A DNA stretch of 54,925 nucleotides from a virus (Duplodnaviria > Caudoviricetes): positions 1 through 54,925 of IMG/VR virus record IMGVR_UViG_3300020021_000017. One strand, 5' to 3'. A program made the position numbers and the translations under genes. Position 1 is the stretch's first letter; every line of letters begins with the position of its first letter. Positions 15,883 through 49,937 of this stretch are shown here, piece by piece. A model generated the notes under the pieces. That model searched no databases. It had not been told where the DNA came from and saw nothing but the letters and a program-made list of their open reading frames with translations.

Positions 15883-15914
15883 GCCTCAGTAGATTCCGTC
15901 TCTGGGGCATTTTT
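15883..15914 (+). terminator. Possible intrinsic terminator after SSB
   Basis: GCCTCAG...CTGGGGC stem followed by ATTTTT. Confidence 0.4.
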
Positions 15915-16197: not shown

Positions 16198-16200
16198 TTT

Positions 16201-16533: not shown

Positions 16534-17363
16534 AATCTTTAGAAGAAGCCTGTATAAGGACTAATTGGGATTCTTTTGTATCTTATTTAGATCGCAGGGT
16601 GTCGGGCATTCAGACGGGTATTACAGCCCTAGATTCATATTTACTTGGTCTGGGCGGTGTAACTGTGATCCAAGGAGATACTGGAACAAATAAATCCACC
16701 CTTATGTTGCAAATTGCTCTTCATCAATTAATGCAAGGAAATCCAGCGCTTATTATAGATCGTGAAAACGGTCAAGGTAGACTTCGCAGTCGTCTAACTT
16801 GCCAACTTAACGGCATTTCTGAAACAGACTTGCTTGTAGGAACTAGAGAGCAAAGATTATTTTGGGTTAAGCCAGTTACAAGACTACCTTTTTATATTTA
16901 CACTGAGAGCGTTTCTGATTTTGTAATTCTAGAAACCCGCATAAAAGAAATGGCAGACCTTTACCCAGACAAACCCCTGCTCCTAATCATAGATTCTCTA
17001 CAAGCTCTTGTCCCAGTTAACGAGGACCAAAGAGTTAGCCTCGAGAAATGGCTTTATTGGGCCGATGGGATGAAGGTACAATATGACGGTAGGTTGACTA
17101 TCCTAGCAACTTCAGAGGTTCGTAGAGCCTCTTATGAGGTTAAGGAGGCAATAGGACGGGCTAAAGGAACTAACGCGGTGGAATACAAAGCAGAAGTACT
17201 TTTGAACTTAAAAGAGGTTGCTGACACAGGTGAGATTAAAGTTGAAGTTGCAAAGAATCGTGATAATATTAAAGGTGCGACAATACTTTTACGCAAGGTT
17301 TTTGCAGATCCAAGTAATAATAGAAGTTTTACTTTTTGCTTAGAAGGAGCGGATGAATTATGA
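16530..17363 (+). CDS. DnaB-like (SF4) helicase, ATPase domain only
   Basis: IQTG...LD, variant Walker A GDTGTNKST, IIDSLQ, KNR. Confidence 0.85.
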   Translation: MKSLEEACIRTNWDSFVSYLDRRVSGIQTGITALDSYLLGLGGVTVIQGDTGTNKSTLMLQIALHQLMQGNPALIIDRENGQGRLRSRLTCQLNGISETDLLVGTREQRLFWVKPVTRLPFYIYTESVSDFVILETRIKEMADLYPDKPLLLIIDSLQALVPVNEDQRVSLEKWLYWADGMKVQYDGRLTILATSEVRRASYEVKEAIGRAKGTNAVEYKAEVLLNLKEVADTGEIKVEVAKNRDNIKGATILLRKVFADPSNNRSFTFCLEGADEL

Positions 17364-18172
17364 TTTGTAGTCTTTGTAACATGGAAGCAATTGTAAATCA
17401 AGCTGAAGGGAAAGAATTCTTTTACTGCCGAACTTGTAAGATTGAGCCAACAGAAAAGAGAGATATAAACTATCCCATCTTACCTCCAGGTTCTATACAT
17501 TATAATGCAAATACTTTCCCCGGTTCCGTTAATCCCTCTTTCGGACCATTGATCCCCGCTTCCCGAGCATTCTTTGATAATGTTTCTAAAATCCAATCTT
17601 CGCCGCATCAGTTAGGTTCCGCTCTTAGAATTCCGTTCACGATAACAACACAAACGGGATTGCTCCCATCTTCGCCGCATCACTTGCTTTCTTTATCGAC
17701 ACCAATAGTTTTGTGGTGGCTTATTCCAGCCGATCTAAATCCCTTCTCAGTTTACTTAAATAAATGGCTACCCGGTTCCTTACAACTTAGTACGCTACCT
17801 GATATATTTTATGGTATTGATCGCAATCTTGATCGAATACAATTGGCTGGAAATTGGTATGACGGGACAGGCAAAACTATAGAAGAAGGTATAATAAATT
17901 TATCTTATGATATTATGCAAAGAGGAGGAAATGTAGACACAGTATTCATGCATTTAACAGATTTTACTAATCTTTGTAAACATTTAGGGAATTTCTCTCC
18001 CATTTCATATCATACAATAATCTATAGCCACTCCAAAATTAATGTATATCCTGATTCAGATTGTCCAAAAGGTTTTGTTTATCTAGTTCAAATGAATACT
18101 TGGGAATACAGTCTTAATTTTAATGCACTTTACTGCACTAATCTTGCATTCAATGGAGTATTGAAACTATGA
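17360..18172 (+). CDS. Zn-ribbon fused to an internally deleted major capsid protein paralogue
   Basis: N-terminal CxxC...CxxC; four collinear blocks align by eye to the MCP at 45997..47292. Confidence 0.8.
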   Translation: MICSLCNMEAIVNQAEGKEFFYCRTCKIEPTEKRDINYPILPPGSIHYNANTFPGSVNPSFGPLIPASRAFFDNVSKIQSSPHQLGSALRIPFTITTQTGLLPSSPHHLLSLSTPIVLWWLIPADLNPFSVYLNKWLPGSLQLSTLPDIFYGIDRNLDRIQLAGNWYDGTGKTIEEGIINLSYDIMQRGGNVDTVFMHLTDFTNLCKHLGNFSPISYHTIIYSHSKINVYPDSDCPKGFVYLVQMNTWEYSLNFNALYCTNLAFNGVLKL

Positions 18173-18363
18173 AGAAGCCAATTATTCGTTGTGAACGCTG
18201 TCATCATGAAGGAAGAGTAGAAAAATTACATTGTTTCGTTTGTGCTGGTTGCAAGAGAGTGGTAGAGTATAAGAATACTGACAAGAAACTTTTTGTGGAA
18301 ATTGATTTAGGACTGTGCAATCCGTGTCATGAAAGATGTCCTCATAGACCAGAAGGAATGTAA
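18169..18363 (+). CDS. Small Zn-finger protein
   Basis: Several CxxC motifs. Confidence 0.6.
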   Translation: MKKPIIRCERCHHEGRVEKLHCFVCAGCKRVVEYKNTDKKLFVEIDLGLCNPCHERCPHRPEGM

Positions 18364-20432
18364 TGAGACCAAAAAATCCTAAATTTATTTGTGTAGATTG
18401 TGAAACAACAGGATTAGACTGGACAAAAGATACCTTACATGGCTTTGCTTACGCTTATGAAGAAGGTGAAGCAATTTATGTTAATGTTTCAGATATACCT
18501 AATTATGTAAAAGAGGATTTGGAAAATTCCGCTATTTCAGTTATTGGTCATAATCTGCATGCGTTTGATGCAAAGTTTCTATTTGCCATAGGGATTAAGA
18601 TACAAGGCAAAATGATTGAAAATATGGGTATTTGGCAATTATTGGATGACACTACTCCTTTAGGTTTGAAATTCTTGTCTGAAAAGCATATTGGTCTTGA
18701 ATCATTGGAACGTAAAAGGCTTCTGGATGACACTATTAAAAAAGCAGGAGTTTCTAATATTGCTGGGCTATGTGCCAAAGATTTACTTGATGCTTCTCAT
18801 CCATATCTAAAAGTAATTGGCGATTATTGTGAAGAAGATTGTAATAATACTTTACACCTGGCACTTCTAGGCATGGAAAAACTTAAAGAATTAGATAAGA
18901 AACTTAAAGAAAAATATAGGGTTACTAAAACTCCTCTTGATTACTTCCGAGAAGAATTCACTCCTCTTGAGAGTGTTCTGTTTAAAATTGAGACTGAGGG
19001 GTTTCGAGTTAATTTGGCTGTCATTGAGAAGTTGAGGGCAAGTGCCGAGATCAAACGGGATGAGTTGACTGCGCGCCTTAATAAGGGCTTTAAAGAGCAA
19101 ATTGCAATTATTGAAGATAAGCTGTACCAGTCAGCCCTGCTTAAACTAGTGATGCCTGCTGCAAAAGCTAAACGTATAAAAGGAGAAGGTAAATTAGCTT
19201 TTAGTTGGGAGAATGCTAATCACGTAGCAATCCTATTCTTCGAGCATACTAATTTCCCAGAGGAATTCATCCGTAGGACCGCTAGAGGTAGTTATGCTAC
19301 TGATAAGACTTATATTAACGGGCTAATGCAGTCATTACCCAAAGGGCACATTCTCCTAAAAGCAATTCCTATCTATGCAAAATATAAGTTAAATCAAAAG
19401 GTACTCACTACTTATACAGGAGATTCTGAAAAGGGTATTTATTCGAAAATCAGAAAAGGTGAGGACGGTAATCATTACATTTATCCTACTTTTCGGCAGA
19501 CAACTACTACTGGAAGATTGGCGTGCAAATCTCCAAACATGCAGAATATTCCACGAAACTCTCCCATTAAAGAATTATTCATACCTACTCAAGAGGGTAA
19601 TGTGTTTGATCATTTCGATTATAGCCAGATAGAATTAAGGATTGCGGGGCATTTGGCTAATGACAAAGATATCATTGCTGCGTATATTAATGGTGATGAT
19701 GTACATAAACAAACAGCAGCCACACTTTTTGAAATACCTATTACGGAAGTCACAGATATTCAAAGACAAGTTGGTAAAACATCTAATTTTTTAACGATTT
19801 ATAAAGGAGGTGCTTATAGATTGCAGGAAAGTCTCAGACAGCCAAATGGCTCATATCCGGGGCTCGAGTTTAGTAAAGAAGAGTGCCAAGAGTTTATTGA
19901 TAAATTCTTTGAACGCTATCCTGATCTTACTAAGTACCTCGCAAATGTACTCGTATTTGTTAGGAAAAACAGGTTTGTAATTAGCGAAGTGGGACGTATT
20001 CGAAGGTTAAGTGATATTGCTTTTGGTGATGAAGGCAACCTTAATTACAAAACTAAACGGTTTGGTGGTACACAACAACAAAGACAATTAATTATACAAG
20101 ACTTCAAAACAAAGAGTATACCAAATCCTTCTGAAGATGATATTTTCTGGGCCGCGCACAAGCGCTATAATCATGCAGTTAAGCAAGCATTTAACTTCCC
20201 AGATCAATCCTTATCTGCTAGTATAATTAAGCGCGCAATGATTAAGTTACATGCTGATGGTATTTCAATTCGTAATCAAGTGCATGACTCATTAGATATT
20301 GAGAGAGAAGAGAAGTTTACCAGTAAAACAGATTATGTACGGCATGTAATGGAAACTATCTATCCTTGCAGGCTTCCAATTAAAGTAGATTTTAAGACAC
20401 TTAGGAGTTTCAGTGAAGAAGATAAAGCCTAA
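18363..20432 (+). CDS. polA: DNA polymerase family A with 3'-5' exonuclease
   Basis: Exo motifs DCETTG, HN..FD, YCEED; TTTGRL..PNMQNIP; motif A DYSQIELR; motif B RQVGKTSNF...Y; motif C VHDS. Confidence 0.95.
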   Translation: MRPKNPKFICVDCETTGLDWTKDTLHGFAYAYEEGEAIYVNVSDIPNYVKEDLENSAISVIGHNLHAFDAKFLFAIGIKIQGKMIENMGIWQLLDDTTPLGLKFLSEKHIGLESLERKRLLDDTIKKAGVSNIAGLCAKDLLDASHPYLKVIGDYCEEDCNNTLHLALLGMEKLKELDKKLKEKYRVTKTPLDYFREEFTPLESVLFKIETEGFRVNLAVIEKLRASAEIKRDELTARLNKGFKEQIAIIEDKLYQSALLKLVMPAAKAKRIKGEGKLAFSWENANHVAILFFEHTNFPEEFIRRTARGSYATDKTYINGLMQSLPKGHILLKAIPIYAKYKLNQKVLTTYTGDSEKGIYSKIRKGEDGNHYIYPTFRQTTTTGRLACKSPNMQNIPRNSPIKELFIPTQEGNVFDHFDYSQIELRIAGHLANDKDIIAAYINGDDVHKQTAATLFEIPITEVTDIQRQVGKTSNFLTIYKGGAYRLQESLRQPNGSYPGLEFSKEECQEFIDKFFERYPDLTKYLANVLVFVRKNRFVISEVGRIRRLSDIAFGDEGNLNYKTKRFGGTQQQRQLIIQDFKTKSIPNPSEDDIFWAAHKRYNHAVKQAFNFPDQSLSASIIKRAMIKLHADGISIRNQVHDSLDIEREEKFTSKTDYVRHVMETIYPCRLPIKVDFKTLRSFSEEDKA

Positions 20433-20754
20433 AAAGAAGAGAGTTTCGAAGTATCCTTGGTACTACAAGTATCTATTTGCGGCTGCCCGTAAAACCTTTA
20501 GGTGGTCTCCAGCCAAGAGAAATGCCGTGAAACGTGCATTTGGTAAGTGTGAACTTTGTGAGCAATACGCCGATAAACTAGTTGTAGATCACATCCGTCC
20601 TGTAGTAGATCCTGAAACGGGCTTCACAACTTGGGATTCTTATTACACAAGATTATTCGTTCCTGAGAGCGAAGTGCAGGCTATCTGCAGTCCGTGTCAT
20701 AAACTGAAAACTAAAACAGAAGCCAAGATACGTGCTGGGGTTCGTAATGCTTGA
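20413..20754 (+). CDS. HNH endonuclease
   Basis: CELC...VDHI...ICSPCHKLKT. Confidence 0.8.
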   Translation: MKKIKPKKKRVSKYPWYYKYLFAAARKTFRWSPAKRNAVKRAFGKCELCEQYADKLVVDHIRPVVDPETGFTTWDSYYTRLFVPESEVQAICSPCHKLKTKTEAKIRAGVRNA

Positions 20755-21004
20755 TATTGTAAACAGCATTTTCAACATCTTTAGTACTTTTGCAATTCTC
20801 GCTAGTTGCTATGGAATATATAAAGCTAAAAAAGTACATAAACAAAGCATTATTACAACTCTTTTTTTTGTTTCTTATGGAGCTTGGAATATTTATTATT
20901 TCTATATTTTAAAGCAGCATTTTAGTATGTATTGTGTCATGGTGACTTTAGCAGCTAATTTGTTATGGACCGGTCTGATTATAAAATATTGGAAGAATGC
21001 ATAA
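20747..21004 (+). CDS. Three-TM membrane protein, PQ-loop/SemiSWEET-like
   Basis: About 85 aa with three hydrophobic helices; IYKAKKV..S, W.IYY and N in TM3. Confidence 0.55.
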   Translation: MLDIVNSIFNIFSTFAILASCYGIYKAKKVHKQSIITTLFFVSYGAWNIYYFYILKQHFSMYCVMVTLAANLLWTGLIIKYWKNA

Positions 21005-21006
21005 TT

Positions 21007-21759
21007 ATGAGTAAAAAAGCAAAAGTAATCTTGTTTGATATTGAGAATAGCCCGATAACGTCTTATACCTGGGCGATGTTTGATACCAATGTAATTGATA
21101 TTAAGAAAGATTGGGAGCTCTTGAGTTTTAGTTATAAAGAATTGGGACAAAAGAAAGCAACGTGCATAACTAGATTAGATTTTGTTGATCCTACCGATAA
21201 ATCTCTTACTAAAGCTCTATGGGATGTTTTAAACGGGGCGGACATTCTTATAGCACATAATGCCAATGAGTTTGATGTTAAGAAAGCTAATGCTAAGTTT
21301 TTGGAATGGAAATTAGGCCCCGTTTCTCCATCACACGTCATTGATACATTGAAGATTGCTCGTAGATATTTCAAATTGTCAAGTAATAAACTTGACGAGT
21401 TAGGTAAGATTCTTAAAGTTGGTAGAAAAGTTAAGCACGAAGGATTCAGTTTGTGGCTAAAATGCATGGCTTCTGATGAAAAAGCCTTTAAGAAAATGGC
21501 TCGATATAATAACGAAGATGTGCAGTTGTTAGAGAGAGTTTATTTGAAGCTTCGTCCCTGGATGCAAGCGCATCCCAATTTGGGACAAATTGAACAAGAG
21601 TTTAGTAGCTGCCCAAAGTGTAAATCCACTAAATTAGTTAAGCGAGGATTTGGTTATACCAAAACTACTACTTATCAGCGGTACTTTTGTACTAGTTGTA
21701 AGGGATGGTGTAAAGGCGCAACTATTAAGGGTTTGAAACCAGAATTTACAGGAGTTTAA
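21007..21759 (+). CDS. DEDD / RNase H-like 3'-5' exonuclease with C-terminal Zn ribbon
   Basis: FDIE, AHNANEFD, IDTL, YNNEDV, CPKC...CTSC. Confidence 0.85.
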   Translation: MSKKAKVILFDIENSPITSYTWAMFDTNVIDIKKDWELLSFSYKELGQKKATCITRLDFVDPTDKSLTKALWDVLNGADILIAHNANEFDVKKANAKFLEWKLGPVSPSHVIDTLKIARRYFKLSSNKLDELGKILKVGRKVKHEGFSLWLKCMASDEKAFKKMARYNNEDVQLLERVYLKLRPWMQAHPNLGQIEQEFSSCPKCKSTKLVKRGFGYTKTTTYQRYFCTSCKGWCKGATIKGLKPEFTGV

Positions 21760-21760
21760 T

Positions 21761-22003
21761 GTGACTAGGATAAAAATGGGCGACATTGTTCGCATCATCT
21801 TTAATGACCATGCACAGGGTTCCGGGTATGCCCCGGGGGTATTACAATTTGAATGTTTTGGTAGGATTGCGGGGATTACTAAGACACACTTTGATGTATG
21901 TACTTGGGGGTATTTACCTGGTCATTTACAAGAAGCTGATGACAATTGTGACTTTACTCATATCGTTCGTGGAGCTATTATTTCGATAAAGGTTTTGAAA
22001 TAA
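21761..22003 (+). CDS. Hypothetical protein
   Basis: GGAG RBS; IVRIIFNDH...G...IVRGAIISIKVL. Confidence 0.6.
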   Translation: MTRIKMGDIVRIIFNDHAQGSGYAPGVLQFECFGRIAGITKTHFDVCTWGYLPGHLQEADDNCDFTHIVRGAIISIKVLK

Positions 22004-22157
22004 CTCGCATTGTTTTCTTCAATTCGGAACGAGTTCTCCTTCTACTAACTTCTCCCATCTGCACAGGTTCTTTCACGCCCGAAATAAACAAATAAACAAG
22101 TGATGATAAGAAAAAAGCTACGAATGCTATTACGATACTCATTTATTTCACACAAAT

Positions 22158-22238
22158 GAAAAAGGCCTCCTTTTGGAAGCCCTGCTTGGGGAGAGTAAGA
22201 TTTTGCTCTGTGAGCCCCTACTCCCCCCTAATTTTGTA
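22158..22238 (-). ncRNA. Candidate ~80-nt sRNA (13-bp stem plus intrinsic terminator)
   Basis: TTGACA-18-TAGTAT promoter at 22275-22246; G-U-containing stem; GGGCTTCC-AAAA-GGAGGCCT-TTTT terminator. Confidence 0.55.
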
Positions 22239-22346
22239 TATCTTTATACTAACGTAATATAAGGTCATTTGTCAAGTAATAATAAGCATTTAATTTAACT
22301 TGCAAATTGCAACTTCTTGTGTAATTATGGAAAAAGGAGGTGTTCT

Positions 22347-22886
22347 TTGAGCGTCATTACGTCAAATCGAAAAATAGTGTTTTCTGGAAGCATTAATGAA
22401 GAATCAACAGCCGAACTGATAGCCGCCCTGCTTTCTATGAATTGCTACACAGATGAAGAAGTAACACTAATCATCAATAGTGGTGGTGGGCATTTAGATG
22501 ATGGTATAGGTATATATGATTGTATCCGCTCCCTTCCATATAAAACTCATGGTATAGTGTTTGGGCAAGCTAGTTCTGCAGCAGTATTGATATTGCAAGC
22601 ATGTACTATGAGAACAATAGGTGAGAATTCTATTATTATGGTACATGCAGGTTCCGTAGGTATCGATGCTAGACATCCTGAGGAAACATTTAAACAAGTA
22701 AAGACTTCCGTAGATATGGTAAGAAGAACAACGAAAATCCTTGCTTTAGCTTGTGGTATTGATGTAAAATTAATGAGTAGAAGAATGAGATTCGGATCTT
22801 CTTATGTTGGACAAAAGGCTGTTGATGCGGGGTTTGTAGACAATGTACTTAAAATAGGAGATTTATACCGTGGAATTAAAGTTTAA
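22347..22886 (+). CDS. ClpP-like serine protease subunit
   Basis: INSGGG, GQASSAA (Ser), IMVH (His), A..GFVD; AGGAGG RBS with TTG start. Confidence 0.85.
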   Translation: MSVITSNRKIVFSGSINEESTAELIAALLSMNCYTDEEVTLIINSGGGHLDDGIGIYDCIRSLPYKTHGIVFGQASSAAVLILQACTMRTIGENSIIMVHAGSVGIDARHPEETFKQVKTSVDMVRRTTKILALACGIDVKLMSRRMRFGSSYVGQKAVDAGFVDNVLKIGDLYRGIKV

Positions 22887-23283
22887 AAGAATTACAATCG
22901 GATCACGATTACCCGATTATCGACAAGAAGGTAATGGTGGATTGGATCTTACTGTTGCTTCACGATCAATTGGGCTTAACTTTGTAGAATATGGATTCGG
23001 AGTAGCTGTTGAGATCCCAGTGGGTTATGTTGGATTTTTGGTACCAAAAGCGTCCATCTCTGACACAAACCTGTATTTAGCCAATTCGGTTGGAATTATC
23101 GATAGTAACTTTAAGGGAGAATTGAAAGCTAGATTCAAACGAGATGGTGGAAGTCCAAAGTTTCCTTCGATTGGCGACAAGATTGTTCAGTTAGTTGTAT
23201 TGCCTATTCCTCAAATGGAACCTTCGTGGGTTGAAAACCTCACGCATTCTGAGCGTGAAGCGCTAGAAAATAAAGAAGAGTAG
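22870..23283 (+). CDS. Trimeric dUTPase-like protein with degenerate motifs
   Basis: GLDL, GIIDSNFKGE and GDKIVQL present; motif V absent. Confidence 0.8.
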   Translation: MELKFKRITIGSRLPDYRQEGNGGLDLTVASRSIGLNFVEYGFGVAVEIPVGYVGFLVPKASISDTNLYLANSVGIIDSNFKGELKARFKRDGGSPKFPSIGDKIVQLVVLPIPQMEPSWVENLTHSEREALENKEE

Positions 23284-23284
23284 T

Positions 23285-23836
23285 ATGACAATTCAAGAGA
23301 TACAAGTAAAAGAACGTAAACAAGCAGCGTTGAAAGTTATTTCATTATTGAAATCATTACGTAAACGTAAAGTTGGCAAGAAGTACTATAGAACTCTAGC
23401 TATCCTAGCCAATTCTATAAAGAGTTCTGGTACTTATCATTCTTGGGGCGATGGGTTCCAGTACTTTAATGAAGTTGAGGATGCGGCTTATGAGATCGGT
23501 GAGTTTTGCAAAACCTGGGGACGAATCTTTATAACTCAAACCAAAGAGAAGTTCGGTACTGCTCGGGTATATTGTTACTTTGCATATCCGAGTTTACACG
23601 GACTGATTTGGCCTGGATACTATTGCAAACGACCTAATTACCCACAATGGCTTTGGTCCGCAGATATCTATTATCTTAGTAAGATTTTTGCAGTTATTAG
23701 CCGATTGATTGGATTTAATAAGTACCAGACGTTTATCTACCGCTTGGCTTACAAGCGAGCTTTGGCGAAGTATCCTATGATTCGAAATGAGATTTTAGCA
23801 GGGGCCGATCATGGGGAGCTGCTTAAAGATTTGTAG
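23285..23836 (+). CDS. Conserved phage hypothetical protein
   Basis: ITQTKEKFGTARVY (Q.KEKFG..R.Y family). Confidence 0.7.
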   Translation: MTIQEIQVKERKQAALKVISLLKSLRKRKVGKKYYRTLAILANSIKSSGTYHSWGDGFQYFNEVEDAAYEIGEFCKTWGRIFITQTKEKFGTARVYCYFAYPSLHGLIWPGYYCKRPNYPQWLWSADIYYLSKIFAVISRLIGFNKYQTFIYRLAYKRALAKYPMIRNEILAGADHGELLKDL

Positions 23837-23929: not shown

Positions 23930-24361
23930 TTAAGCTATCTCAAATAAAGCTTTTTCAGCTAATCTTCGTTTCAATAATCCAGCATTTGCGATACCATTAA
24001 TATGAGACCACTTGACGAACTCTTGGGCAGCAGAGCCAAAAGCTCCGTTGTTTACGTCAGCCAGTAAAGTACTTCGTCCTAAGTTCCCAATGCCAATGTT
24101 AAAAGCTAGGGAAACCAAAGCCGCAAACTGATTATCATTTACATTTGACTTGATAGCGTCATCGACTTGTTGCTCTGCATTTGTTAGGTCCTGAACTAGG
24201 AAAGCTTCTGCCTGATCTTGCGTAATAGAATCCCCATCACATACGCTGTGAGTATGACCATACCCAATAGTCCAAACACCGCCCTGGTCTTGATACGCGT
24301 CTAATCTACACCCTTCAAAGTGCTCAATGAGAGCCATTCCCGCTGAATTAATCTGTCTCAT
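23930..24361 (-). CDS. Endolysin, GH24 lysozyme
   Basis: FEG.RL.AYQD..GVWTIGYGHT, FAALVS.AFNIG, GL..RR..E..LF. Confidence 0.95.
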   Translation of the reverse strand: MRQINSAGMALIEHFEGCRLDAYQDQGGVWTIGYGHTHSVCDGDSITQDQAEAFLVQDLTNAEQQVDDAIKSNVNDNQFAALVSLAFNIGIGNLGRSTLLADVNNGAFGSAAQEFVKWSHINGIANAGLLKRRLAEKALFEIA

Positions 24362-24945
24362 TATTTTTCAACCAAGCAATAAAGTAGCATTGCAGTAACC
24401 ATTCCACCTAAATGAGCAGCAAATGCTGTCCCAGTGGGCATTACAATAGCTGTACAAGTTGCAATGTATTGTGACATAAACAAAAACGCCATGAATAGAA
24501 TACTAAGTACTCTTACTATCTTATTCTCTTTGCAAGAAAGCAGGGCGTAAAATACACAGCCGCTTATAGCCACAGAACTACCGAGTAATTCAGTCCACCC
24601 AAACAGGCTGGGAGTAATCATGAAGAATAGAGAGCCACATACCCCCGTAATAAACCATATTGCAAGGAACTTTAGGGAACCTATTTTACGCTCTAAATAG
24701 ATGCATAAGGGACCGCCAAATACGAAATTTCCAGTTAAGTGTATGAAGCCAGAATGAGCAAACATATGAGTGATCATATGTAGTATACTAAGGACACCAA
24801 TACCATCTTCGTATTTAACTGCTAATTGGTCCATTAAGCCAGGATAAAATAAAGATGTTACGTATGCAATAGCACTAAGAAGGAACATTGAGAAGAACGC
24901 TATCGGGGAGTGTTTTGATGAAGGTCGTGGTTTTTTGCTTAACAT
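24361..24945 (-). CDS. Rhomboid-family intramembrane serine protease
   Basis: HMFAH...HL.GN, LE..IG, G-S-S (catalytic Ser), AHLGG (catalytic His); about 6 TM helices. Confidence 0.85.
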   Translation of the reverse strand: MLSKKPRPSSKHSPIAFFSMFLLSAIAYVTSLFYPGLMDQLAVKYEDGIGVLSILHMITHMFAHSGFIHLTGNFVFGGPLCIYLERKIGSLKFLAIWFITGVCGSLFFMITPSLFGWTELLGSSVAISGCVFYALLSCKENKIVRVLSILFMAFLFMSQYIATCTAIVMPTGTAFAAHLGGMVTAMLLYCLVEK

Positions 24946-32012: not shown

Positions 32013-34877
32013 TTATTTCAGCCCCGTAGACATTTTTTGTGCGTTTGTAAGATATGATTCAGAAATACTTGCTTTAGTTAGTGAACCCTTTCTTCCGCCC
32101 TTACCTATACTATTTGGTGAAGGAGGAGGTTGGGGGGTATTGAAGGTCGATTGCAACTGCATGATATTAGAACCTTTGGTAGTTAAAGCAGTTCCAAGAA
32201 ACTTGCCTAAAAGCATCTTATTTTGATAGGGCATGCTTTGCGATTTATCTAAACCTTTAGTAGAAAGAGAATTCATGATATTTTGTCTCATAGAATTTAA
32301 TAGTTCTGGATGAACATTAGTTGTAGCTAATAGTTTATTTTGATTCAATATGCCGGACTTCATATCTTTGAGCAGGGACGTTGGGTTTACGATGCCTTGG
32401 TATGCATCAATAACGTGAGCCATTTCTTGCTTATTTGGTTGATAAGGCATATCCAAAGGACCACCCTGCTTCTGAGGCACGATGGAGTCCATGTACTGAT
32501 TAGCGCGCACAACGGTCTGTTGCATTGCACTAGATGTTTGTGGAGCATGATCATGAAGATTCTCAGTGAGGTTTGTAACGTGACCTAGTAATCCATCTGG
32601 TCCTTGTTTAATCTTTGCAAGTTTACTAATGATATCATCATATTGATCTTTTTGATCTTGATTAGAAGCGAGAACCTTAGCTGCGGAAGCAGTCGAAAAA
32701 GGCTCAGCAGTATTTACTAGGGCTTTTGCTCCTGATGCAATAGCTTTGGCAGATTTAGTAGCCATGTTTTCAATGGCCATCAAAGCACCGACTGTACGGG
32801 TTTCTGGTCCACCAATAGCTTTTTGAATAGCAGTTAATCCAGCCCAATCTGCAACGTGCCCAATAGTTCCTTTGATAGGATGACGAAGGAAATTTATACC
32901 AGATAACACTGAGGATGCGGGGGTAACTCTAGTTCCACCTTTACCAAAAGCTTCTAAATAAGTACTTGCAGCCTGTAGCTTTTCCAATTCACCTGGTTGA
33001 AACATAACCTTTTGAACTTCTGGAGAAAACTTGTTTACTTCTTTTAATACTTTAGAAGGATCAATCCTACCGTCAAATAGGGTCTTTTCTACGATCTTTG
33101 ACTTCTGACTGTCAACCATTGATTTCAGTTCATCGGGAAAAGTCTCTTGCATGAATTGGAGGAAATCGGGATCTTTCTTAGTAAATAAACGGTTTGCAAG
33201 TTTAGTAGGATTTAAATCGTTAAGAAAATTAAGAATGTGGGTAGGTCCATAAGTTTTGGACTTACCAGCTGCACCAGCAATCTCTTCCATTTTATTCATT
33301 AGTCCCGAATATTTCTCATCTACTAAGGCTTTTTGAGCCGGGAGATTTCTTAGTTGTTCTACCAAGTCAGGCGGGAAATTAGGATCACCTTCTAATTGAG
33401 TAGCCAATCCTTCTACAGTTTTATTTTCTAAACCATCAAGTTCATTGCGAACCAGGGAAGCAGCATATCTAAGATTAGGTTTACCAATGGTCTCTTTTGC
33501 AATCAAAGTTCCATATGCTTTGATCTGATCCAGAGTTTTTAAATTACCAATGTCTCTAGCTGCAGAACTTAGGAAAGAAGCTTGATCGGAAGTAGGAGAC
33601 AATTTTATAGCATCGGATTTATAAAGATTTTTAGAAGCAGTTTCTGTATCCTTGGGTTCCAACGTTACAGCTTTACCGTTCTGTTGAAGTTCGTCATATA
33701 TAGGTTTAAGTGGTTCATACTCGGCATTAAACTTATCAGTCATACTTTGCTGTAAGTTTTGTCCAAGTTCATGATCGGTCATGGCTGGAGTACCGGGGGT
33801 GATAATCTCACCAACTTGATTTTCAACAGAATCCAAAGCTCCATCAACAGCCTTAGCCCTATTAATTCCGACAGTAGTCGGGGACGCTCTAAGATCGCGC
33901 CCGAAACTTTGTATACCCTTATCGGCGGCTAGTTGCTCTTCAAATGCGGGGACGCCTAGGGTTCCTGCTGCACTTTTAATTTCGTCAGCATTATCTTTTA
34001 GGCCGCTCATCTTCTGGAAATACCCACGTTTCTGAGTATCAGATAAACTAGAATCCAGCAGGATATCTTGCATAGATGCGGGAGCAGCGTCTGCAGAACT
34101 TCCAGTAATTGCATCTCCACCAGTTCTGAGATTACCGAGAGTTTCTGCAATATCAGATTTATATGGATTAGGAAGCAACGTACCGAGCCCCGCACCAAAC
34201 ATGGCACTTTCACCAATTTGCGTAAGTGCGTGCTGGGCAACTAAGTGTGGATCACCAAGTGCTGATTCAGAAACAACATTACCAGTACCGTACAAAGCCC
34301 CCTCAACGGCACTACCAGCAGCTTTAGGAACTACCTTTGCCATTATTCTAGAAGCTAAAGAAGCTTCGGGACCGGCATTCATTAAACCTGACACACCCGC
34401 AGCAGTAGCTCCTCCAGCCTCTGAAATTAATCCAGGAGCGCCTACTCCACCAGCTAGCAGTGAAGCACCAATACCACCAATTTCACCAGCAGTAGAAGCG
34501 ATAGGATTATATTCTTTTAATTTAGCAAGATCCTTCTTGGACATTCCCATTGCTTGCAGGGCGTAATCTGAGGTTCCTGCACTAACGCCTCTTAACGCTC
34601 CAGCGGCTGTGGCTTTAGCAACATTACCGACGCCCTCGCCGTATTGAATGGACTCATTATGCTTTGTGACATCTTGAGTAGATGGGAATGATAATCCATT
34701 ACCCAATGAGTTTGAGACTTGTTCCGCGGGAACAGAAACCAGATTCCCATTCTCATCCTTCAGCGGCAGGGACGAGCCAGTAGGCAACTCATGAGTACCT
34801 GCTTGGAAAGCAGTTCCCAACTGATCGTAATCTACATTTTCAGGTTGACCAGTTTGTTTGTTGATTAAATTAGGCAT
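32013..34877 (-). CDS. Large internal virion / DNA ejection protein
   Basis: 954 aa, A/G-rich membrane-like segment then helical; third gene of the ejection cluster. Confidence 0.65.
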   Translation of the reverse strand: MPNLINKQTGQPENVDYDQLGTAFQAGTHELPTGSSLPLKDENGNLVSVPAEQVSNSLGNGLSFPSTQDVTKHNESIQYGEGVGNVAKATAAGALRGVSAGTSDYALQAMGMSKKDLAKLKEYNPIASTAGEIGGIGASLLAGGVGAPGLISEAGGATAAGVSGLMNAGPEASLASRIMAKVVPKAAGSAVEGALYGTGNVVSESALGDPHLVAQHALTQIGESAMFGAGLGTLLPNPYKSDIAETLGNLRTGGDAITGSSADAAPASMQDILLDSSLSDTQKRGYFQKMSGLKDNADEIKSAAGTLGVPAFEEQLAADKGIQSFGRDLRASPTTVGINRAKAVDGALDSVENQVGEIITPGTPAMTDHELGQNLQQSMTDKFNAEYEPLKPIYDELQQNGKAVTLEPKDTETASKNLYKSDAIKLSPTSDQASFLSSAARDIGNLKTLDQIKAYGTLIAKETIGKPNLRYAASLVRNELDGLENKTVEGLATQLEGDPNFPPDLVEQLRNLPAQKALVDEKYSGLMNKMEEIAGAAGKSKTYGPTHILNFLNDLNPTKLANRLFTKKDPDFLQFMQETFPDELKSMVDSQKSKIVEKTLFDGRIDPSKVLKEVNKFSPEVQKVMFQPGELEKLQAASTYLEAFGKGGTRVTPASSVLSGINFLRHPIKGTIGHVADWAGLTAIQKAIGGPETRTVGALMAIENMATKSAKAIASGAKALVNTAEPFSTASAAKVLASNQDQKDQYDDIISKLAKIKQGPDGLLGHVTNLTENLHDHAPQTSSAMQQTVVRANQYMDSIVPQKQGGPLDMPYQPNKQEMAHVIDAYQGIVNPTSLLKDMKSGILNQNKLLATTNVHPELLNSMRQNIMNSLSTKGLDKSQSMPYQNKMLLGKFLGTALTTKGSNIMQLQSTFNTPQPPPSPNSIGKGGRKGSLTKASISESYLTNAQKMSTGLK

Positions 34878-42781: not shown

Positions 42782-43981
42782 TTACATGATCTCGTAAGCT
42801 ACTAAAACTGCGTTATTGATAAATACTGAGGCAGAATTTCCTGTATTGACGACATTGTATGATAGAGTATAGTTATACACACCTGCTCCTACAAAGTCTA
42901 CTTGTGCGATAGAACTAAGAGGAATATTCATTGATATGGCAGAAAAATTATCAAATGTCGTTGAGATACTATAAGAGTTTATTGGAGTACCGTTTCTAAG
43001 TAATGTAAAAGTGGCTTGTGCTATTGCAGGACTAGTGGCATTTGGGCAACTGACTCCAATAGAATTGAATCCTGTGAAATTGCCCGGACCAGACATTAAT
43101 AGAATTTGTACAGGCCTGCCGCTTGTAGTAAACACTGGACAAGAAAGTCCGGTGGGTATTGAAGATACACTGGTAGTTGAGGCAGTTATTGCAGTACTCA
43201 CAGACACATTAAGCGGAGCAAGATTTAGATCTGTTACTGTATTATTTGCAATCTGTGCGCTAGTAATGGTATTATTTGCAATCTGTGCGCCAGTAATGGT
43301 ATTATTTGCAATCTGTGCGGCGGTTATAGCTAGATTTGCAATTTCTATTCCAGTGATTTGAGCTGCGACTAATAACCCAGCATTACTTATAGTGAGAGGC
43401 AATGGTGTAGTTGGCGAAGGTAGTGTTATAGGTAATGTTAAGGTGTAGTCTACAGTCAGTGTAGAATCAACCTGTAATTGAATTGTATTACCTAAAGCAT
43501 TAGTAAGAAGAAGCGAACTACCTTGAATAGAAGAAAATTGGTTGATGGAATTTGTATATGAAAAAAGATTTGCAGTACTGTTGAAATATGCAATGGCATG
43601 GGCAGTTGTATAGTCCCCTTTAAATCCACCGCTACCTGTAACGTTGACGGAAGGGCCACTAGTTATCTGTACCGCTGTTCCAGCGCCATTGGTGTACCAC
43701 AGGTCCCCAAGATGTGTGTATATGGAGCTAGGGGTTGCTAATGTCGATCCCTGTTGCACAAATGCAGCGCTAGTAAGATTAACTGCACTAAAGTTATTAA
43801 AATTCAAGTCTGCGTTAATATTGATTCCAGCAGTAGGAACTTGTTGCCCTTGACCAGTAGTGTGATTGTGGAGATCGATAAGATTCAAATCATCTAGAAA
43901 GTCTTGTGACCAAAGGGGATCTGGCGTTACATTTATTACAGGTAACTCAAGGCTCATGTATTGAGACAAAATTGTAGTCAT
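42782..43981 (-). CDS. Tail fibre/needle protein, paralogue A
   Basis: HNHTTG motif; 10-aa ITxAQIANNT repeats. Confidence 0.7.
   Translation of the reverse strand: MTTILSQYMSLELPVINVTPDPLWSQDFLDDLNLIDLHNHTTGQGQQVPTAGININADLNFNNFSAVNLTSAAFVQQGSTLATPSSIYTHLGDLWYTNGAGTAVQITSGPSVNVTGSGGFKGDYTTAHAIAYFNSTANLFSYTNSINQFSSIQGSSLLLTNALGNTIQLQVDSTLTVDYTLTLPITLPSPTTPLPLTISNAGLLVAAQITGIEIANLAITAAQIANNTITGAQIANNTITSAQIANNTVTDLNLAPLNVSVSTAITASTTSVSSIPTGLSCPVFTTSGRPVQILLMSGPGNFTGFNSIGVSCPNATSPAIAQATFTLLRNGTPINSYSISTTFDNFSAISMNIPLSSIAQVDFVGAGVYNYTLSYNVVNTGNSASVFINNAVLVAYEIM
43225..43335 (-). repeat. 30-bp coding tandem repeats (ITxAQIANNT)
   Basis: TATTATTTGCAATCTGTGCG recurs every 30 bp. Confidence 0.85.
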
Positions 43982-45162: not shown

Positions 45163-45738
45163 TTACTCGTTACCTGCTTTGGCAGTAGAGTTCTTAACGA
45201 ACATGTCGAATCCAAGGACAGATCCGGCAGTAGGATCAGTTGCCGCACCAGCTGAATTCAGGCATTGCATGATCAGAGAAGGTAGACCAGGCTGCGTGAT
45301 CGTGAGGTTCGTGTTACCAATCACTTCAACGTGACTGATACCAGAATTGGTTACTAGAAAGGCAGAGCCGGTTCCAGCGCCAACAGTCGTTGCAACAAAC
45401 GGAATACCGGGGGCTGCTACGAGACCGATGTTCAGTCCCGCTGCATTAAAATTAGTAGTACCTAACGCATTGATAACATAACTATCACCAACAACGAAAG
45501 ATCCTGCTGCAACAGAAGTCGTTGCCGGAGAAACAAACCCAGCTGCTCCCGCGAGATATCGCGGATAAACTTGACTGAGAACTACTTGGTAAGTTCCAGG
45601 AGAAAGACGAGTAATCGAAGTGATACCCGCACCTTTGATTGTTCCGACCGCACCAGTACCGAGCACTACGAAGTTACCTTCGATATATGTGAGCATTGGT
45701 TGAGCACTATACAGGAATTGATATTTAAGTCTAGCCAT
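45163..45738 (-). CDS. Putative capsid decoration / minor virion protein
   Basis: Follows MCP; SITRLSPGTYQV and AGSFVVG.SY.I..LGTTNF modules. Confidence 0.6.
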   Translation of the reverse strand: MARLKYQFLYSAQPMLTYIEGNFVVLGTGAVGTIKGAGITSITRLSPGTYQVVLSQVYPRYLAGAAGFVSPATTSVAAGSFVVGDSYVINALGTTNFNAAGLNIGLVAAPGIPFVATTVGAGTGSAFLVTNSGISHVEVIGNTNLTITQPGLPSLIMQCLNSAGAATDPTAGSVLGFDMFVKNSTAKAGNE

Positions 45739-45954
45739 GTTATTATTTTCTTCCAGTTCCGAAGCAACTGAAATCCTTCTATTAGTATCGCCCGAAGGAT
45801 TTAGGGGAGGGTGTCAAACAGCTACTGCCGTTAGGCAGGAACGGAATAGACGGTTTAATTATACCGTTTATGGTATAAAACTTGTTTATCCCTGTAAGGG
45901 TATAACTTAATACTCACTACCGAGAATTAGGTTAAATACTTACAGTAAAAGTAA

Positions 45955-45990
45955 ATTGGGAACCAAATCACATCGTGATCTGGCCCCCAG
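45955..45990 (-). terminator. Long hairpin after MCP (terminator or mRNA stabiliser)
   Basis: TGGGGGCCAGATCAC-GAT-GTGATTTGGTTCCCA followed by ATTT. Confidence 0.6.
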
Positions 45991-45996
45991 AATTAA

Positions 45997-47292
45997 CTAG
46001 GCTGACAACCGGATTACGCAGTTCCAACCAGGCGCACTAGTGATCAAATTGGCATAATAACCAATTCGGATCTCTAATGCATCCGCAGTACCAACGCGAA
46101 GACCTTCAAGGCCTTCCATGCCGTACGTGAGGATATGAGGCGCTTTTCCAAGCGACCGCAGCTTCCACACGTCTAGCTCCAGGAGGTAGCACATCTGCTG
46201 TGGGCAGTTACGGTCAGGAATGACCGTGATCGGGCCGTACGGAGCATGAACAGTGATACCCTTAAACGCGATATCTCCCATGCCACCTTCACCGTCATCG
46301 CCGCGCACATCAACATATTGCACCTTACTTCCCAATTCTTTTTCAAGAGCTGAGTAGGATGCGAAGTTCATGAAGCACATTTCAGGCGCTCCGCCTTCTC
46401 GTGCAACAAGTGAACTTCCGTCAATGAGGGCTTCTTCGATTGATTCGCCTGATCCGTCAAAACGGACGCCTGCGAGTCTGGTCACATCAACTGATCTGTC
46501 CACTCCCCAGAAACTGTCGCCAGTAACAGGAGCAATGAACGGCAACCACGCGGCTAAACCAGCAACCTTCAAGAACGAAGTCGTTCCAGAAGCGCCAGCT
46601 GCACCGATGTCACCCTGCGCCACTAGGAAGCTCAAGGCCGCCCATTGTGCAGAAGGAGTTGCACTTGAGGATAACAGAATCAACTGACCCGTAGATCGAT
46701 TAACATTGGTGACTTGAGCAGTCGTAGCAGAAGGAACGCCGCCATCAGTAGCAGTTGCAACTAACGTCATTCCAACTTCGAACTGTACGATGTCATTCGT
46801 GTCAAGCAGAACGATCGTGATGACCGTACCGACCAACGCGTATGTACCAATTTGTCCGCGTGTACCCGTTCCACTGCGGAACAAGTCACCGGCTAAGTCA
46901 TTCGAGATCGAACGAAATGAGGCATCAACCTGGAGCTTGCCTTCGTCCAAAAACGCACCCGCATTCTGTCCCGTTGCGGCTTCGAGAAGCTCGTTCGAGA
47001 TAGATGCGATCACGTAGTTGCTTACTCGGAATACAAAGAAACTTTGCATCTGAGTAGGCGTTTGATTAAGCTGAGCATTCGCAAACGTAGCGGATCTTCC
47101 TTGCGGAGTTCCGTAGATCAACGGCACGGGAATATACTTTCCCGCGAACCCTTGAGGACTTTCGTCCTTAGGGATAATGGCCAACATCGGATTCTTTTTA
47201 TAAACTAGATCTTTCATGTACTCGGTAGGATTGTCGTACAATTCCTTGAGTGCAGCGATCTGGTTCGTTGCATTATTAAAAACTGGAGGCAT
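45997..47292 (-). CDS. Major capsid protein (HK97 fold inferred)
   Basis: 431 aa after the scaffold; ALKELY, F..G.G, PD..CP...Y.L...W; GC-richer codons; downstream hairpin. Confidence 0.88.
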   Translation of the reverse strand: MPPVFNNATNQIAALKELYDNPTEYMKDLVYKKNPMLAIIPKDESPQGFAGKYIPVPLIYGTPQGRSATFANAQLNQTPTQMQSFFVFRVSNYVIASISNELLEAATGQNAGAFLDEGKLQVDASFRSISNDLAGDLFRSGTGTRGQIGTYALVGTVITIVLLDTNDIVQFEVGMTLVATATDGGVPSATTAQVTNVNRSTGQLILLSSSATPSAQWAALSFLVAQGDIGAAGASGTTSFLKVAGLAAWLPFIAPVTGDSFWGVDRSVDVTRLAGVRFDGSGESIEEALIDGSSLVAREGGAPEMCFMNFASYSALEKELGSKVQYVDVRGDDGEGGMGDIAFKGITVHAPYGPITVIPDRNCPQQMCYLLELDVWKLRSLGKAPHILTYGMEGLEGLRVGTADALEIRIGYYANLITSAPGWNCVIRLSA

Positions 47293-47358: not shown

Positions 47359-48399
47359 TTAGCCTCGTCCGTACAACTTAGCAAGGACTTTGGCTTTACG
47401 TTCCGCTGGTGATAGATTTTCTTTGACAGGACGTGCGGTGCCGTCTGTTGCAATTTGATGCGTTAGGGTAGTAGGTACCCATTTTGGCTTCGTTATAGGT
47501 GCAGCTTCATTACCAGCAACAGGAGGTATTCCAGTACCTTGAGTTCCGGTATTCGTAGCCAGGGGGGCATTGATCCCGAGCTTTGCCTGTAGTTTAGCTA
47601 CTTTGAATAAATCGAGTGCTTGTTCTTCGAAATAAGATTCGACGGACTTGCAGGCTTCCTCGACATTCATTATGCGGCCAGTGTTATTGTAATGCTGGGA
47701 CATTAACTCGAACACTACTCCGCTTGCTTCATTCTTTGAGACCAAGGCGAAATCATCTGGGCGCGCCTTGACAAAATCTTCTATTTCTAACTTAACCTGG
47801 TCGGTGGCTTGTTGATATTGTTGTTGGGCCTGAGCATTCGCTTGTTCAGCGGCTTGAGCCTGCTGAGCTTTAAATTCTGAATCACGTCGGCTGTTCTCGT
47901 CACGTAACTGCTGTAACTCACGTTGCATCCTACTCTCTACTAACTCTGGAGTGGGCTTAGAATCGTTTAGGACGAATTGAGTAAGCTGTTCGTACGTCAT
48001 CCCCAGGTCTTTCATGGCCTCAATGGGGTTTTGCAATGCACGGGCTTTTAAATCGTTTTGGTAAGTGCTCTTTACAACATCAGCGGGTTGCAACGTTGCA
48101 AGTTTAGCCTCGAGCTCTGCAATCTTAGTGGCTTGAGCTTTGGACGCAGTAGATGCTTGCATTGCACGTTGCGAACTGGCTCTCTCTTTTTCAACCAGCG
48201 CATTGAAGCGCTTATTCATTTCGATGCGTTCTGGGGAGGGTGTCGGGGCTTTGACTTCAGGAACAACAGGGACAACGGGGCTGGGGGCTACTTGCGCTAT
48301 AGATGCCTTTGCTTGAAGAGTTTGTTGCTGAGGGGTGTTAATAGTAGTTGCAGCTACAGAGGGCTTTACATTGAAACCAGAGCCGATGGGGGCAGGCAT
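47359..48399 (-). CDS. Capsid scaffolding protein
   Basis: Coiled coil with P-rich ends and C-terminal ERKAKVLAKL helix; directly upstream of MCP. Confidence 0.75.
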   Translation of the reverse strand: MPAPIGSGFNVKPSVAATTINTPQQQTLQAKASIAQVAPSPVVPVVPEVKAPTPSPERIEMNKRFNALVEKERASSQRAMQASTASKAQATKIAELEAKLATLQPADVVKSTYQNDLKARALQNPIEAMKDLGMTYEQLTQFVLNDSKPTPELVESRMQRELQQLRDENSRRDSEFKAQQAQAAEQANAQAQQQYQQATDQVKLEIEDFVKARPDDFALVSKNEASGVVFELMSQHYNNTGRIMNVEEACKSVESYFEEQALDLFKVAKLQAKLGINAPLATNTGTQGTGIPPVAGNEAAPITKPKWVPTTLTHQIATDGTARPVKENLSPAERKAKVLAKLYGRG

Positions 48400-48534
48400 T
48401 GTACCTCGTGGGTTGCAAGCACTTTACTTGCAGTATGTGTTAATGTGTGATAAGATATACGAATATCCGACTGACACACGTTGATGAAATCGTAAGGAAT
48501 GGTAAACTGGTTAATAGTATTAAGGAGTTAGGAA

Positions 48535-48783
48535 GTGAATCATATTTGGGTTAATAGTGTTAATGGTAGTGGGGAATTAATTTGCAATAGTTGTGGCAAA
48601 CTTAGTTCTGATAATTCACTAAGTATAAATACTTGTTTTGGACCTAAACTTAAACTTACTGGAATAAGTGGTGGTAAACTATCGCCTGGATACCCCGATC
48701 CACCTATCCCACTAGTTGCAGCAGACGGTTCTTGCAGTTGCAGTGAGAGGTCCTGCGTAATATGTACACCGAGCTTTTTATAA
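48535..48783 (+). CDS. Small Cys-rich protein
   Basis: AAGGAG/AGGA RBS; H..CxxC and CxC..CxxC. Confidence 0.5.
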   Translation: MNHIWVNSVNGSGELICNSCGKLSSDNSLSINTCFGPKLKLTGISGGKLSPGYPDPPIPLVAADGSCSCSERSCVICTPSFL

Positions 48784-48924
48784 CTTGAGTTGTATCTTTA
48801 TTAGAACATACACCTAATACACATTCCATATTCTTTTGGTATGAGCATAAGTATGGCTAATCTTTAGTACATAAGTATTTGTAAACTGTAAAGACTTCAT
48901 CTAGTTTACTTTAGAGTGCATAGA

Positions 48925-49285
48925 AACCCAATCTCTTACGGGTTCGTGAGCCTATAAGAAGAAGGGAATCTTTACTCAATGAAAGGTTTTATAGATTTAA
49001 CGCTTGCAATTTGTGCCGCGCTGAGAATTACTTGCCACTAAGTGGGTTTTGGCTATCGTCTTTCGACGAGCTCACGCCCCGTACCACACACTCAGACAAT
49101 CAATAAAGAGGAATGGTGGCTCGTACTTCTCATAATCACTTCAACCTAATTTAATACCGAGCCCTGCTATGATTGAATCGCTGTGCAATATGGGTTCTTA
49201 GTGGTGCCCTACGGCTTCGGAGCTTATCCCGACACACTAATTGATTACCTTGCGGTTCCAATCCAACCTTAACAAAACTCTTCTA
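48925..49285 (-). ncRNA. Candidate large structured non-coding RNA B (~330-360 nt)
   Basis: GAAA and GCAA tetraloop hairpins, 5'/3' closing helix, long-range pairing, upstream promoter, no ORF. Confidence 0.65.
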
Positions 49286-49290
49286 ATTAC

Positions 49291-49320
49291 ATTAATATCA
49301 TACTTTATTGCAATTTGCAA
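49291..49320 (-). promoter_or_regulatory. Promoter TTGCAA-17-(TGn)TATTAA upstream of candidate RNA B
   Basis: Reverse strand reads TTGCAAATTGCAATAAAGTATGATATTAAT; TTGCAAATTGCAA also occurs at ~22300 on +. Confidence 0.55.
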
Positions 49321-49470
49321 CTGTTATCTTTGCCTCTACTGCAAAAAGTGTTGTTAAACTTGTAAGTTTTGGTGTAATGTGTAATAATTGATACACGTTG
49401 CAATTCTCCCTACTTATACTCTAAATGTAAACAAACGATTACATTAGGCACTCTTATTTATATATTAGTT

Positions 49471-49489
49471 GTTTAGAATGATTCTAAAC
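49471..49489. promoter_or_regulatory. Perfect inverted repeat GTTTAGAAT-G-ATTCTAAAC (ICE/Irr, Fur-family-like operator)
   Basis: Contains TTTAGAA-N3-TTCTAAA. Confidence 0.5.
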
Positions 49490-49608
49490 TCACCAAATTT
49501 ATTAATAATACTAATCATTTAAACTACTAAGACTTTAGTAGATGTATATTTATTAGTCAATTGTTATTAGATATACAATTTTTCATTATCTTTTAGGCAT
49601 AAGCATCC

Positions 49609-49624
49609 TGGCATTCACATTGCA
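49609..49624 (+). promoter_or_regulatory. Sigma54-like -24/-12 element TGGCATTCACATTGCA
   Basis: GG and GC at the exact sigma54 spacing, upstream of the first early gene. Confidence 0.4.
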
Positions 49625-49665
49625 ATATACTAATCTTACGAACACTAAACAAAGGAAAGTGATTT

Positions 49666-49803
49666 ATTATCGATTACAAAGGTTTTAAGATTCACCAAAA
49701 TGTTTACACTGGTTCTTTCTTCTATTTCGAAGGTAAGAATCTTATTAAAACTTCTACTTTAGCTGAGATGAAACGAATCCTTGATGCAAAGGAGACAAAA
49801 TGA
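49666..49803 (+). CDS. Small early protein with apparent ATT start (MIDYKGFKIHQN...)
   Basis: AAGGA RBS 9 nt upstream, in-frame TGA just before, stop coupled (ATGA) to next gene. Confidence 0.5.
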   Translation: MIDYKGFKIHQNVYTGSFFYFEGKNLIKTSTLAEMKRILDAKETK

Positions 49804-49937
49804 ATCTAATATTCCTCACACTCGGTCTTTTGTTACTAATCCCACTTTGCTTAGTTTGTTATGTGGCTTGGTGCATTCATCCAATTCTAGGTATCATTGC
49901 AGCCATAAGCATTTTCAGCGGTGGTCTCTATTCTTAA
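49800..49937 (+). CDS. Small membrane protein (45 aa)
   Basis: AAGGAG RBS; MNLIFLTLGLLLLIPLCLV... Confidence 0.6.
   Translation: MNLIFLTLGLLLLIPLCLVCYVAWCIHPILGIIAAISIFSGGLYS

Follow-up and report, generated by a model that had tools for sequence, protein, structure and literature searches.

The stretch of DNA analyzed here (the window) is an IMG/VR virus record of 54,925 bases that represents an uncultured SU10-like phage lineage, and distant matches to SU10-type Pfam families were obtained in it for the portal (1e-8), the adaptor (1e-8), and the major capsid protein (1e-4, below the Pfam cut-off). Further Pfam names found in the window include the large terminase, a family A DNA polymerase, a DnaB-like helicase, and a lysozyme, among others. 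The plus strand carries a module running from 49666 to the end of the window and over positions 925-3433, as well as the replication block (12292-23836), and the minus strand carries a block composed of small genes, the terminase, and the portal (11067-3472) and another composed of a scaffold-like gene and the capsid, adaptor, tail, and lysis genes (48399-23930). The first gene of this last operon (47359-48399, minus strand; 346 aa) was considered scaffold-like by its position, its homologues in relatives being flanked by the portal gene and the gene for the major capsid protein, and GAGG is located 6 nt 5' of its start at 48399. On the other side, the divergent module begins with a conserved small ORF of about 45 aa (49666-49803, plus strand), whose counterpart in the related IMG/VR contig G001 lies at 6259-6396 of locus L006, also on the plus strand. 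The ATT codon of the window at 49666, which has GGAAAG 6 nt upstream, corresponds to the G001 ATG when the two are aligned; judging from this alignment, ATT is a possible non-canonical start of the small ORF. The ORF that follows begins in an ATGA overlap at 49800. A 1.26-kb non-coding gap (48400-49660), bounded on its far side by the small ORF, is located between the divergent operons and upstream of the capsid and tail genes. The stretch under study (48925-49285, minus strand) is situated in this gap, as the 5'-proximal part of a putative leader.

Among GenBank phages, neither the junction DNA nor the terminase had a match, and matches to the DNA polymerase shared 23-28% identity among the 12 listed, with all 3736 falling below 60%. 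Regarding other genes of the phage (12292-12804 and 22317-23283 on the plus strand, 23930-24945 on the minus strand), a domain resembling the N-terminal part of dATP/dGTP diphosphohydrolases was detected (E 4.9e-22). Enzymes of this type occur in phages with 2-aminoadenine genomes, and the domain may hint at a modified-base DNA metabolism. A Clp protease, a dUTPase, and a rhomboid-domain protein adjoining the lysozyme are encoded as well. Three tandem units of about 30 nt starting with TTGCAATCTGTGCG are located at 43246-43336 (plus strand), inside a 399-aa gene (42782-43981). The end of the capsid gene together with the following gap (45400-46000, minus strand) contains the lowest 150-nt fold z-score of the structural block (-3.9), and the fold calculation suggests that a stem-loop may follow the capsid gene.

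When the gene order was compared with that of distant relatives, the portal, scaffold, and capsid genes followed one another directly on one strand in 16 of 16 loci (L008-L022 and L047; two of these loci are truncated by the start of their contig). The window and G001 alone have an opposite-strand module of about 8 kb that splits the portal (3472-5388 in the window) from the scaffold gene (47359-48399), with the portal ending the other minus-strand block; the small genes of this module include DUF932, GP88, YdcK solenoid repeats, and DUF6745. As a consequence of this split, the scaffold operon of the lineage of the window and G001 acquired an upstream region of its own. One explanation of the gap, which we consider possible though rather unlikely, builds on this rearrangement: the region would be mostly functionless spacer, composed of decayed genes or inserted DNA that is drifting, with only the promoter/operator and the ribosome-binding region being functional.

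The absence of an ORF over the stretch, reported in the preliminary description, was confirmed. The longest ORF with a start codon measured 38 aa and the longest stop-to-stop frame 60 aa, and stops were present in each of the six frames (4-11 per frame). Alternative genetic codes (table 4 and TAG=Q) opened no frame across the stretch, and a pseudogene remnant was discarded after a tblastx search of 48400-49660 against the 16 related loci and G001 gave no match at E<=1. The same query gave weak matches in the remaining window, located solely outside the stretch. This lack of translated similarity, both to the relatives and to the rest of the genome, argues against the spacer explanation, whereas the base composition is in its favor, since the GC content of the stretch (0.44) is nearer to that of the neighboring genes (0.48-0.51) than to that of the regulatory, promoter part of the gap (0.27). 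The 3' part of the gap has a GC content of 0.36 and the genome an average of 0.39, and a very AT-rich segment (49400-49600, GC 0.19-0.28) adjoins the GC-richer stretch. The remaining ORF-free leader up to the scaffold start (48400-48924, minus strand) contains a second GC-richer patch at 48640-48800.

Close relatives of the phage, with contigs 95-100% alike, were present in three freshwater-metagenome runs (2025, three studies) and one soil run (2018); none of the runs listed with the window's sequence was an RNA run. Within the stretch, the contigs from these four runs extend over 48934-49188 but not over 49189-49285. Three substitutions are listed in the covered part, at a density of about 1% that is the same as in the flanks; one changes a predicted C-G pair to U-G and two fall at unpaired positions of the minimum free energy (MFE) fold described below, so all three fit that fold, a number far too small to serve as covariation evidence. 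Additionally, the relatives carry an insertion of 1 nt after 48692 and another of 22 nt after 48830, which confirms the non-coding nature of the 3' part of the gap; such indel polymorphisms among close relatives are also what a drifting spacer would accumulate. The 22-nt insertion lies beside one copy of a weakly similar element of about 75 nt (nhmmer E 0.75) that is common to 48805-48881 on the minus strand, in the late leader, and to 126-201 on the plus strand, where the window begins with 676 ORF-free bases. The two copies hold a 17/18 match, CATACTTATGCTCATACC versus CATACCTATGCTCATACC.

Two promoter-like sites precede the stretch on the minus strand. The promoter proposed earlier, TTGCAA-17-TGnTATTAA (49292-49320), is present with all of its elements, namely TTGCAA at 49320-49315, a spacer of 17 nt, the TG (as TGa), and TATTAA at 49297-49292. 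Its last -10 position is A and not T, and because this final T is missing the site was omitted by our sigma-70 scan. The scan identified TTTACA-17-GAGAAT (9/12; 49403-49431), located 110 nt upstream of the TTGCAA/TATTAA site and in the same relative position, just after a conserved palindrome, as TTTACA-16-TATAAT (11/12) in G001. Promoter-like sites in the region numbered 7 versus 5.6 expected from shuffles, and the sigma-70 consensus may not suit the host. A phage-sigma motif of the TAATGTA type was discarded, its 19 matches versus 14.4 expected showing no enrichment. No terminator-like site was detected on the minus strand between 50100 and 48200. These features bear on one reading of the locus that we regard as improbable, in which a discrete, lineage-specific structured ncRNA or ribozyme of 300-360 nt would be made from the TTGCAA promoter and would act in trans, or in cis as an antiterminator or regulator of the late operon, with an unalignable analogue in G001. 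A discrete RNA of this kind is disfavored by the lack of a terminator-like 3' end and by the -10 hexamer without its last T.

The junction also contains candidate binding sites for proteins. The conserved palindrome is a perfect 9-1-9 repeat, GTTTAGAATcATTCTAAAC (49471-49489), found in G001 as GTTTAGAATtATTCTAAAt at about 5916-5936 of L006, and a dimeric regulator could use it as an operator. A second palindrome, ATTGCAAT, which contains TTGCAA, occurs in 11 copies in the window versus 2.35 expected (0/100 shuffles reach 11), two of them in the junction gap (49307 and 49619); this excess could stem from binding by a regulator or from a bias linked to restriction or methylation. The 3' part of the gap additionally contains a 17-nt repeat in three loosely matching copies. 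Together with the AT-rich segment at 49400-49600 beside the stretch, the conserved and the recurring palindromes and the 17-nt repeats are the features expected if the divergent junction held a DNA-level element, i.e., a replication origin, a packaging site, or a platform for regulator binding. We consider such an element very improbable as an account of the stretch itself: apart from one copy of TTGCAATTTG at 49004-49013, the features lie outside 48925-49285, no iteron array was found inside the stretch, repeat families with two or three loosely matching copies often arise by chance, and nothing links replication or packaging to this junction.

Regarding the fold of the putative transcript, all eight complementary segments and both GNRA-type loops described earlier were found at their minus-strand coordinates, and the partition function gave an appreciable pair probability to three of the eight proposed helices, the other five being near 0. 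The TCGTC-GAAA-GACGA hairpin (49056-49069) reached 0.59-0.98, the TTAGTG/CACTAA helix 0.90-1.00, and the TGAGAAgTAC/GTAaTTCTCA helix 0.38-0.99 except at its G-A mismatch, all of them in contexts of 361 nt and 997 nt. In the same contexts, the ACC-GCAA-GGT hairpin had a pair probability of 0.00, as did the three 5'-3' closing helices in the partition function, and the 8-bp long-range match between CGTGAGCT and GGCTCACG remained at 0.00-0.03. The proposal that the RNA forms one large closed structure is not supported. Rather than a single closed architecture, the calculations predict a chain of local domains, composed of domain 1, domain 2, and a small 3' hairpin. Domain 1 (49159-49280, minus strand) is predicted as a long irregular hairpin of 122 nt with a three-way tip that includes TTAGTG/CACTAA; it was identical in the 361-nt and 891-nt folds, with high pair probabilities in the 361-nt and 997-nt contexts. 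Domain 2 (48995-49147, minus strand) is predicted as a multibranch domain comprising TGAGAAgTAC/GTAaTTCTCA and the TCGTC-GAAA-GACGA hairpin.

The MFE of the whole stretch was -102.9 kcal/mol, with a z-score of -2.07 (2/100 shuffles fold equally well; -1.92 when recomputed). When compared to a coding background of 30 sense-strand windows of 361 nt from the structural genes, which had a mean z-score of -0.46 (sd 1.04), this value corresponds to about the 93rd percentile, and two of the 30 windows reached -2.07. The best 150-nt window of the stretch (49150-49299) had a minus-strand z-score of -3.41 and a plus-strand z-score of -0.05, and three of the 121 coding windows of that length reached -3, two of them -3.4. 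With coding windows this extreme (2/30 and 3/121), the stretch belongs to the upper tail of the background and not beyond it. Fold statistics that stay inside the coding background are consistent with the spacer explanation and speak against a discrete RNA, as do the five helices near probability 0. Conversely, a discrete RNA is favored by the well-populated GAAA-capped hairpin with two more predicted helices, by the GC-rich island within an AT-rich gap, and by the strand specificity of domain 1, since no window of the stretch other than 49150-49299, which covers it, differed clearly in z-score between the strands. The three substitutions among close relatives also point in this direction, with the reservation on their number given above.

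Searches against known RNA families provided no support for a discrete RNA either. The whole window gave 0 matches to Rfam 15 at gathering score in the cmscan comparison proposed earlier, a collection that covers riboswitches, self-cleaving ribozymes, group I/II introns, GOLLD, ROOL, OLE, HEARO, 6S, RNase P, and tmRNA, among others. At E<=10, no match fell inside the stretch when 48300-49900 was searched, ribozyme models included, so no known catalytic core of a self-cleaving ribozyme was recognized in it by an Rfam model. Three weak matches at that threshold were located outside the stretch, at 49345-49489 (E>=2.9; 15-18 bits versus gathering scores of 50-150). ARAGORN found 0 tRNA or tmRNA genes. 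Likewise, no antiterminator or sigma family was named in the 62 ORFs scanned with Pfam, most of which had no family at all.

G001 (51,355 bases) was the sole mid-distance relative among the collections searched (IMG/VR, metagenome contigs, GTDB genomes, and GenBank phages); with one such relative, the power of the comparison is low. The IMG/VR search with alignment A1 returned 16 loci, G001 alone being close, and single protein queries returned two distant loci for the scaffold and one locus, G001, for the terminase. In metagenome contigs, alignment A2 yielded 0 loci and A1 one, identical to a known distant locus, and in GTDB genomes A1 yielded one distant locus. G001 shares 72% protein identity with the window in the terminase and 54% in the scaffold, and the two are syntenic over their whole length, with coding blocks at 64-81% nucleotide identity. 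Similarity covers the scaffold gene at 47581-48058 (72%) and resumes at 49710-49788 (73%), and blastn finds none between. For the stretch, no similarity to the syntenic region of G001 was detected by blastn (word 7) or nhmmer --max, the leader including the stretch gave no nhmmer match at E<=1, and the Smith-Waterman score against the G001 leader was 18 versus a shuffle mean of 20.2 (91/100 shuffles score as high). For the promoter/operator part of the junction, the Smith-Waterman z-score was 3.6, with 0/100 shuffles as high. With filters off, nhmmer aligned the small ORF (E 4.6e-8) and gave two weak alignments in the AT-rich promoter part; in one of the two (E 0.61), TATTGCAAT and the palindrome GTTTAGAATnATTCTAAA are common to the window and G001.

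Structural searches led to a similar result. Single-sequence covariance models of domains 1 and 2 (R1 and R2) recovered self-matches only in 196 kb of related loci, and the best match of R1 in the G001 gap with filters off was 6.8 bits (E 0.31), single-sequence models having little power. A 16-mer from domain 1 had 20 IMG/VR matches, none with extended similarity, and a 20-mer pattern had 0 matches in GTDB genomes. The preliminary description had named a lack of structural conservation in related phages as an argument against its own proposal, and as far as this can be tested that is what was found: the stretch had no counterpart in G001 by sequence or by single-sequence covariance models, and no homologues with conserved blocks and covarying pairs, as a conserved structured ncRNA would have, were obtained. 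The failure of blastn, nhmmer, Smith-Waterman, and both covariance models to find a counterpart weighs against a discrete RNA, and the complete loss of similarity next to coding DNA that retains 64-81% identity is what the spacer explanation predicts. The layout of the junction, on the other hand, was preserved. In G001 the palindrome is followed by TTTACA-16-TATAAT, then by about 750 nt without an ORF >=70 aa (leader at L006 5111-5860), and then by the scaffold gene, and ORF-free DNA at the junction exceeds 1.1 kb in both phages. The G001 leader (561 nt; L006 5220-5780, minus strand) had a fold z-score of -4.46 that 0/100 shuffles equaled, and its 150-nt window at L006 5200-5349 (minus strand) had one of -4.97. 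This calculated folding, better than chance, hints that structure matters there. Both the retained length, in genomes that are compact elsewhere, and the fold of the G001 leader argue against a functionless spacer and are in line with a discrete RNA.

Considering these results, the reading to which we give an even chance of being correct is that the stretch constitutes the 5'-proximal third of a fast-evolving untranslated leader of about 0.9-1.0 kb, belonging to the scaffold-capsid-tail operon and bearing local stem-loops. Between the promoter-like sites and the scaffold gene, which share a strand, there is neither an ORF nor a terminator-like site. This reading is also favored by the corresponding layout in G001, by the split of the portal from the scaffold gene, by the helices with high pair probability in both contexts, and by the loss of similarity next to a scaffold gene and a promoter/operator part that are conserved. 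Of the three readings offered earlier, the large regulatory leader therefore agrees with the strand, the position, and the absence of an ORF and a terminator, and the independent ncRNA and the ribozyme obtained no positive support. We infer from these features that the stretch is transcribed, where its transcript would begin and end, and what role its folds could play. Transcription would start at one or both of the sigma-70-like sites (49431-49403 and/or 49320-49292), and, with no intrinsic terminator on the way, the transcript would cross the stretch and reach the scaffold start at 48399. The leader RNA would fold into local domains, namely the 122-nt 5' hairpin domain and the multibranch domain, which would most plausibly stabilize or time the late mRNA through 5'-end protection or processing sites, and whose sequence would not be tightly constrained.

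Against the leader reading, a functional RNA with fast sequence turnover could likewise account for the GC 0.44 island and for the length of non-coding DNA (more than 1.1 kb) that both phages maintain, and the position of the fold z-score in the upper tail of the coding background and the fold of the G001 leader count against it as well. Indeed, it is because of the GC island, the strand-specific domain 1, the length kept in both phages, and the strong fold of the G001 leader that the RNA readings stay alive. If the leader reading is true, the stretch would form part of an ordinary, though unusually long, late-operon leader, and its main interest would be evolutionary, in that the splitting of a gene block left a non-coding region of 1.2 kb whose length was kept and whose sequence was not. 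Phages rarely keep 1.2 kb of non-coding DNA.

Long untranslated leaders are known in phage late operons, an example being the late leader of lambda pR'. Like lambda-type late leaders, the stretch occupies the coding strand, with promoter-like sites before it and the first structural gene after it, lacks an ORF, and has predicted local stem-loops. Unlike them, the putative leader described here is much longer (about 0.9-1.0 kb) and has no identified terminator or antiterminator protein. The put RNAs of HK022 are cis-acting antiterminator stem-loops located just downstream of a promoter, which comprise about 70 nt and two stem-loops and act on downstream terminators. The resemblance consists of a predicted stem-loop domain that begins a few bases from a putative start site and precedes a long operon, and the difference lies in the length of the domain, here 122 nt, and in the absence of a terminator-like site found downstream. 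In put- or nut-type antitermination, the leader acts on terminators further along, and the nut type also involves an N-like protein and a boxA/boxB pair; in the stretch, a 5-bp GAAA-capped hairpin is predicted (pair probability 0.6-0.97), with no terminator-like site found downstream. The stretch resembles GOLLD and ROOL (PMC12286853), which are large ornate RNAs associated with phages, in being large, ORF-free, and GC-richer within a phage genome, and differs from them in being at most half their size, without an Rfam match, and without a conserved core in G001.

The other divergent junction contains a comparable region, referred to as RNA A (11068-11573), which is ORF-free and GC-richer and lies upstream of the minus-strand terminase-portal operon. 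The earlier statement that the stretch has no similarity to RNA A was borne out by nhmmer. Both regions are located at a divergent junction ahead of a minus-strand late operon, and in this respect the proposal that each junction carries its own large RNA held loosely, since both contain long ORF-free, GC-richer stretches; it did not extend to conservation, similarity in G001 being found for RNA A only. An even broader proposal, which we consider to have little probability, is that a structured GC-richer ncRNA precedes each of the two late operons, the one on the scaffold side being a functional RNA of at least 300 nt (a cis antiterminator, an mRNA-stabilizing RNA, or a trans-acting RNA) whose fold was kept while its sequence turned over beyond what an alignment of the window and G001 can recover. 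If true, it would define an orphan class and would suggest that both late operons are controlled via large leader RNAs, which the present data do not support.

Unlike the stretch, which keeps no similarity, RNA A retains block-wise similarity to G001 33571-34070 (L025 7571-8070), with an nhmmer E of 1.9e-7 and a Smith-Waterman z-score of 5.5 (0/100 shuffles). As a candidate conserved RNA, RNA A is more promising than the stretch at 48925-49285. Visual inspection of the minus strand showed a TTTACA-16-TAAACT site at about 11567-11540, and with this site RNA A would be the leader of the terminase-portal operon.
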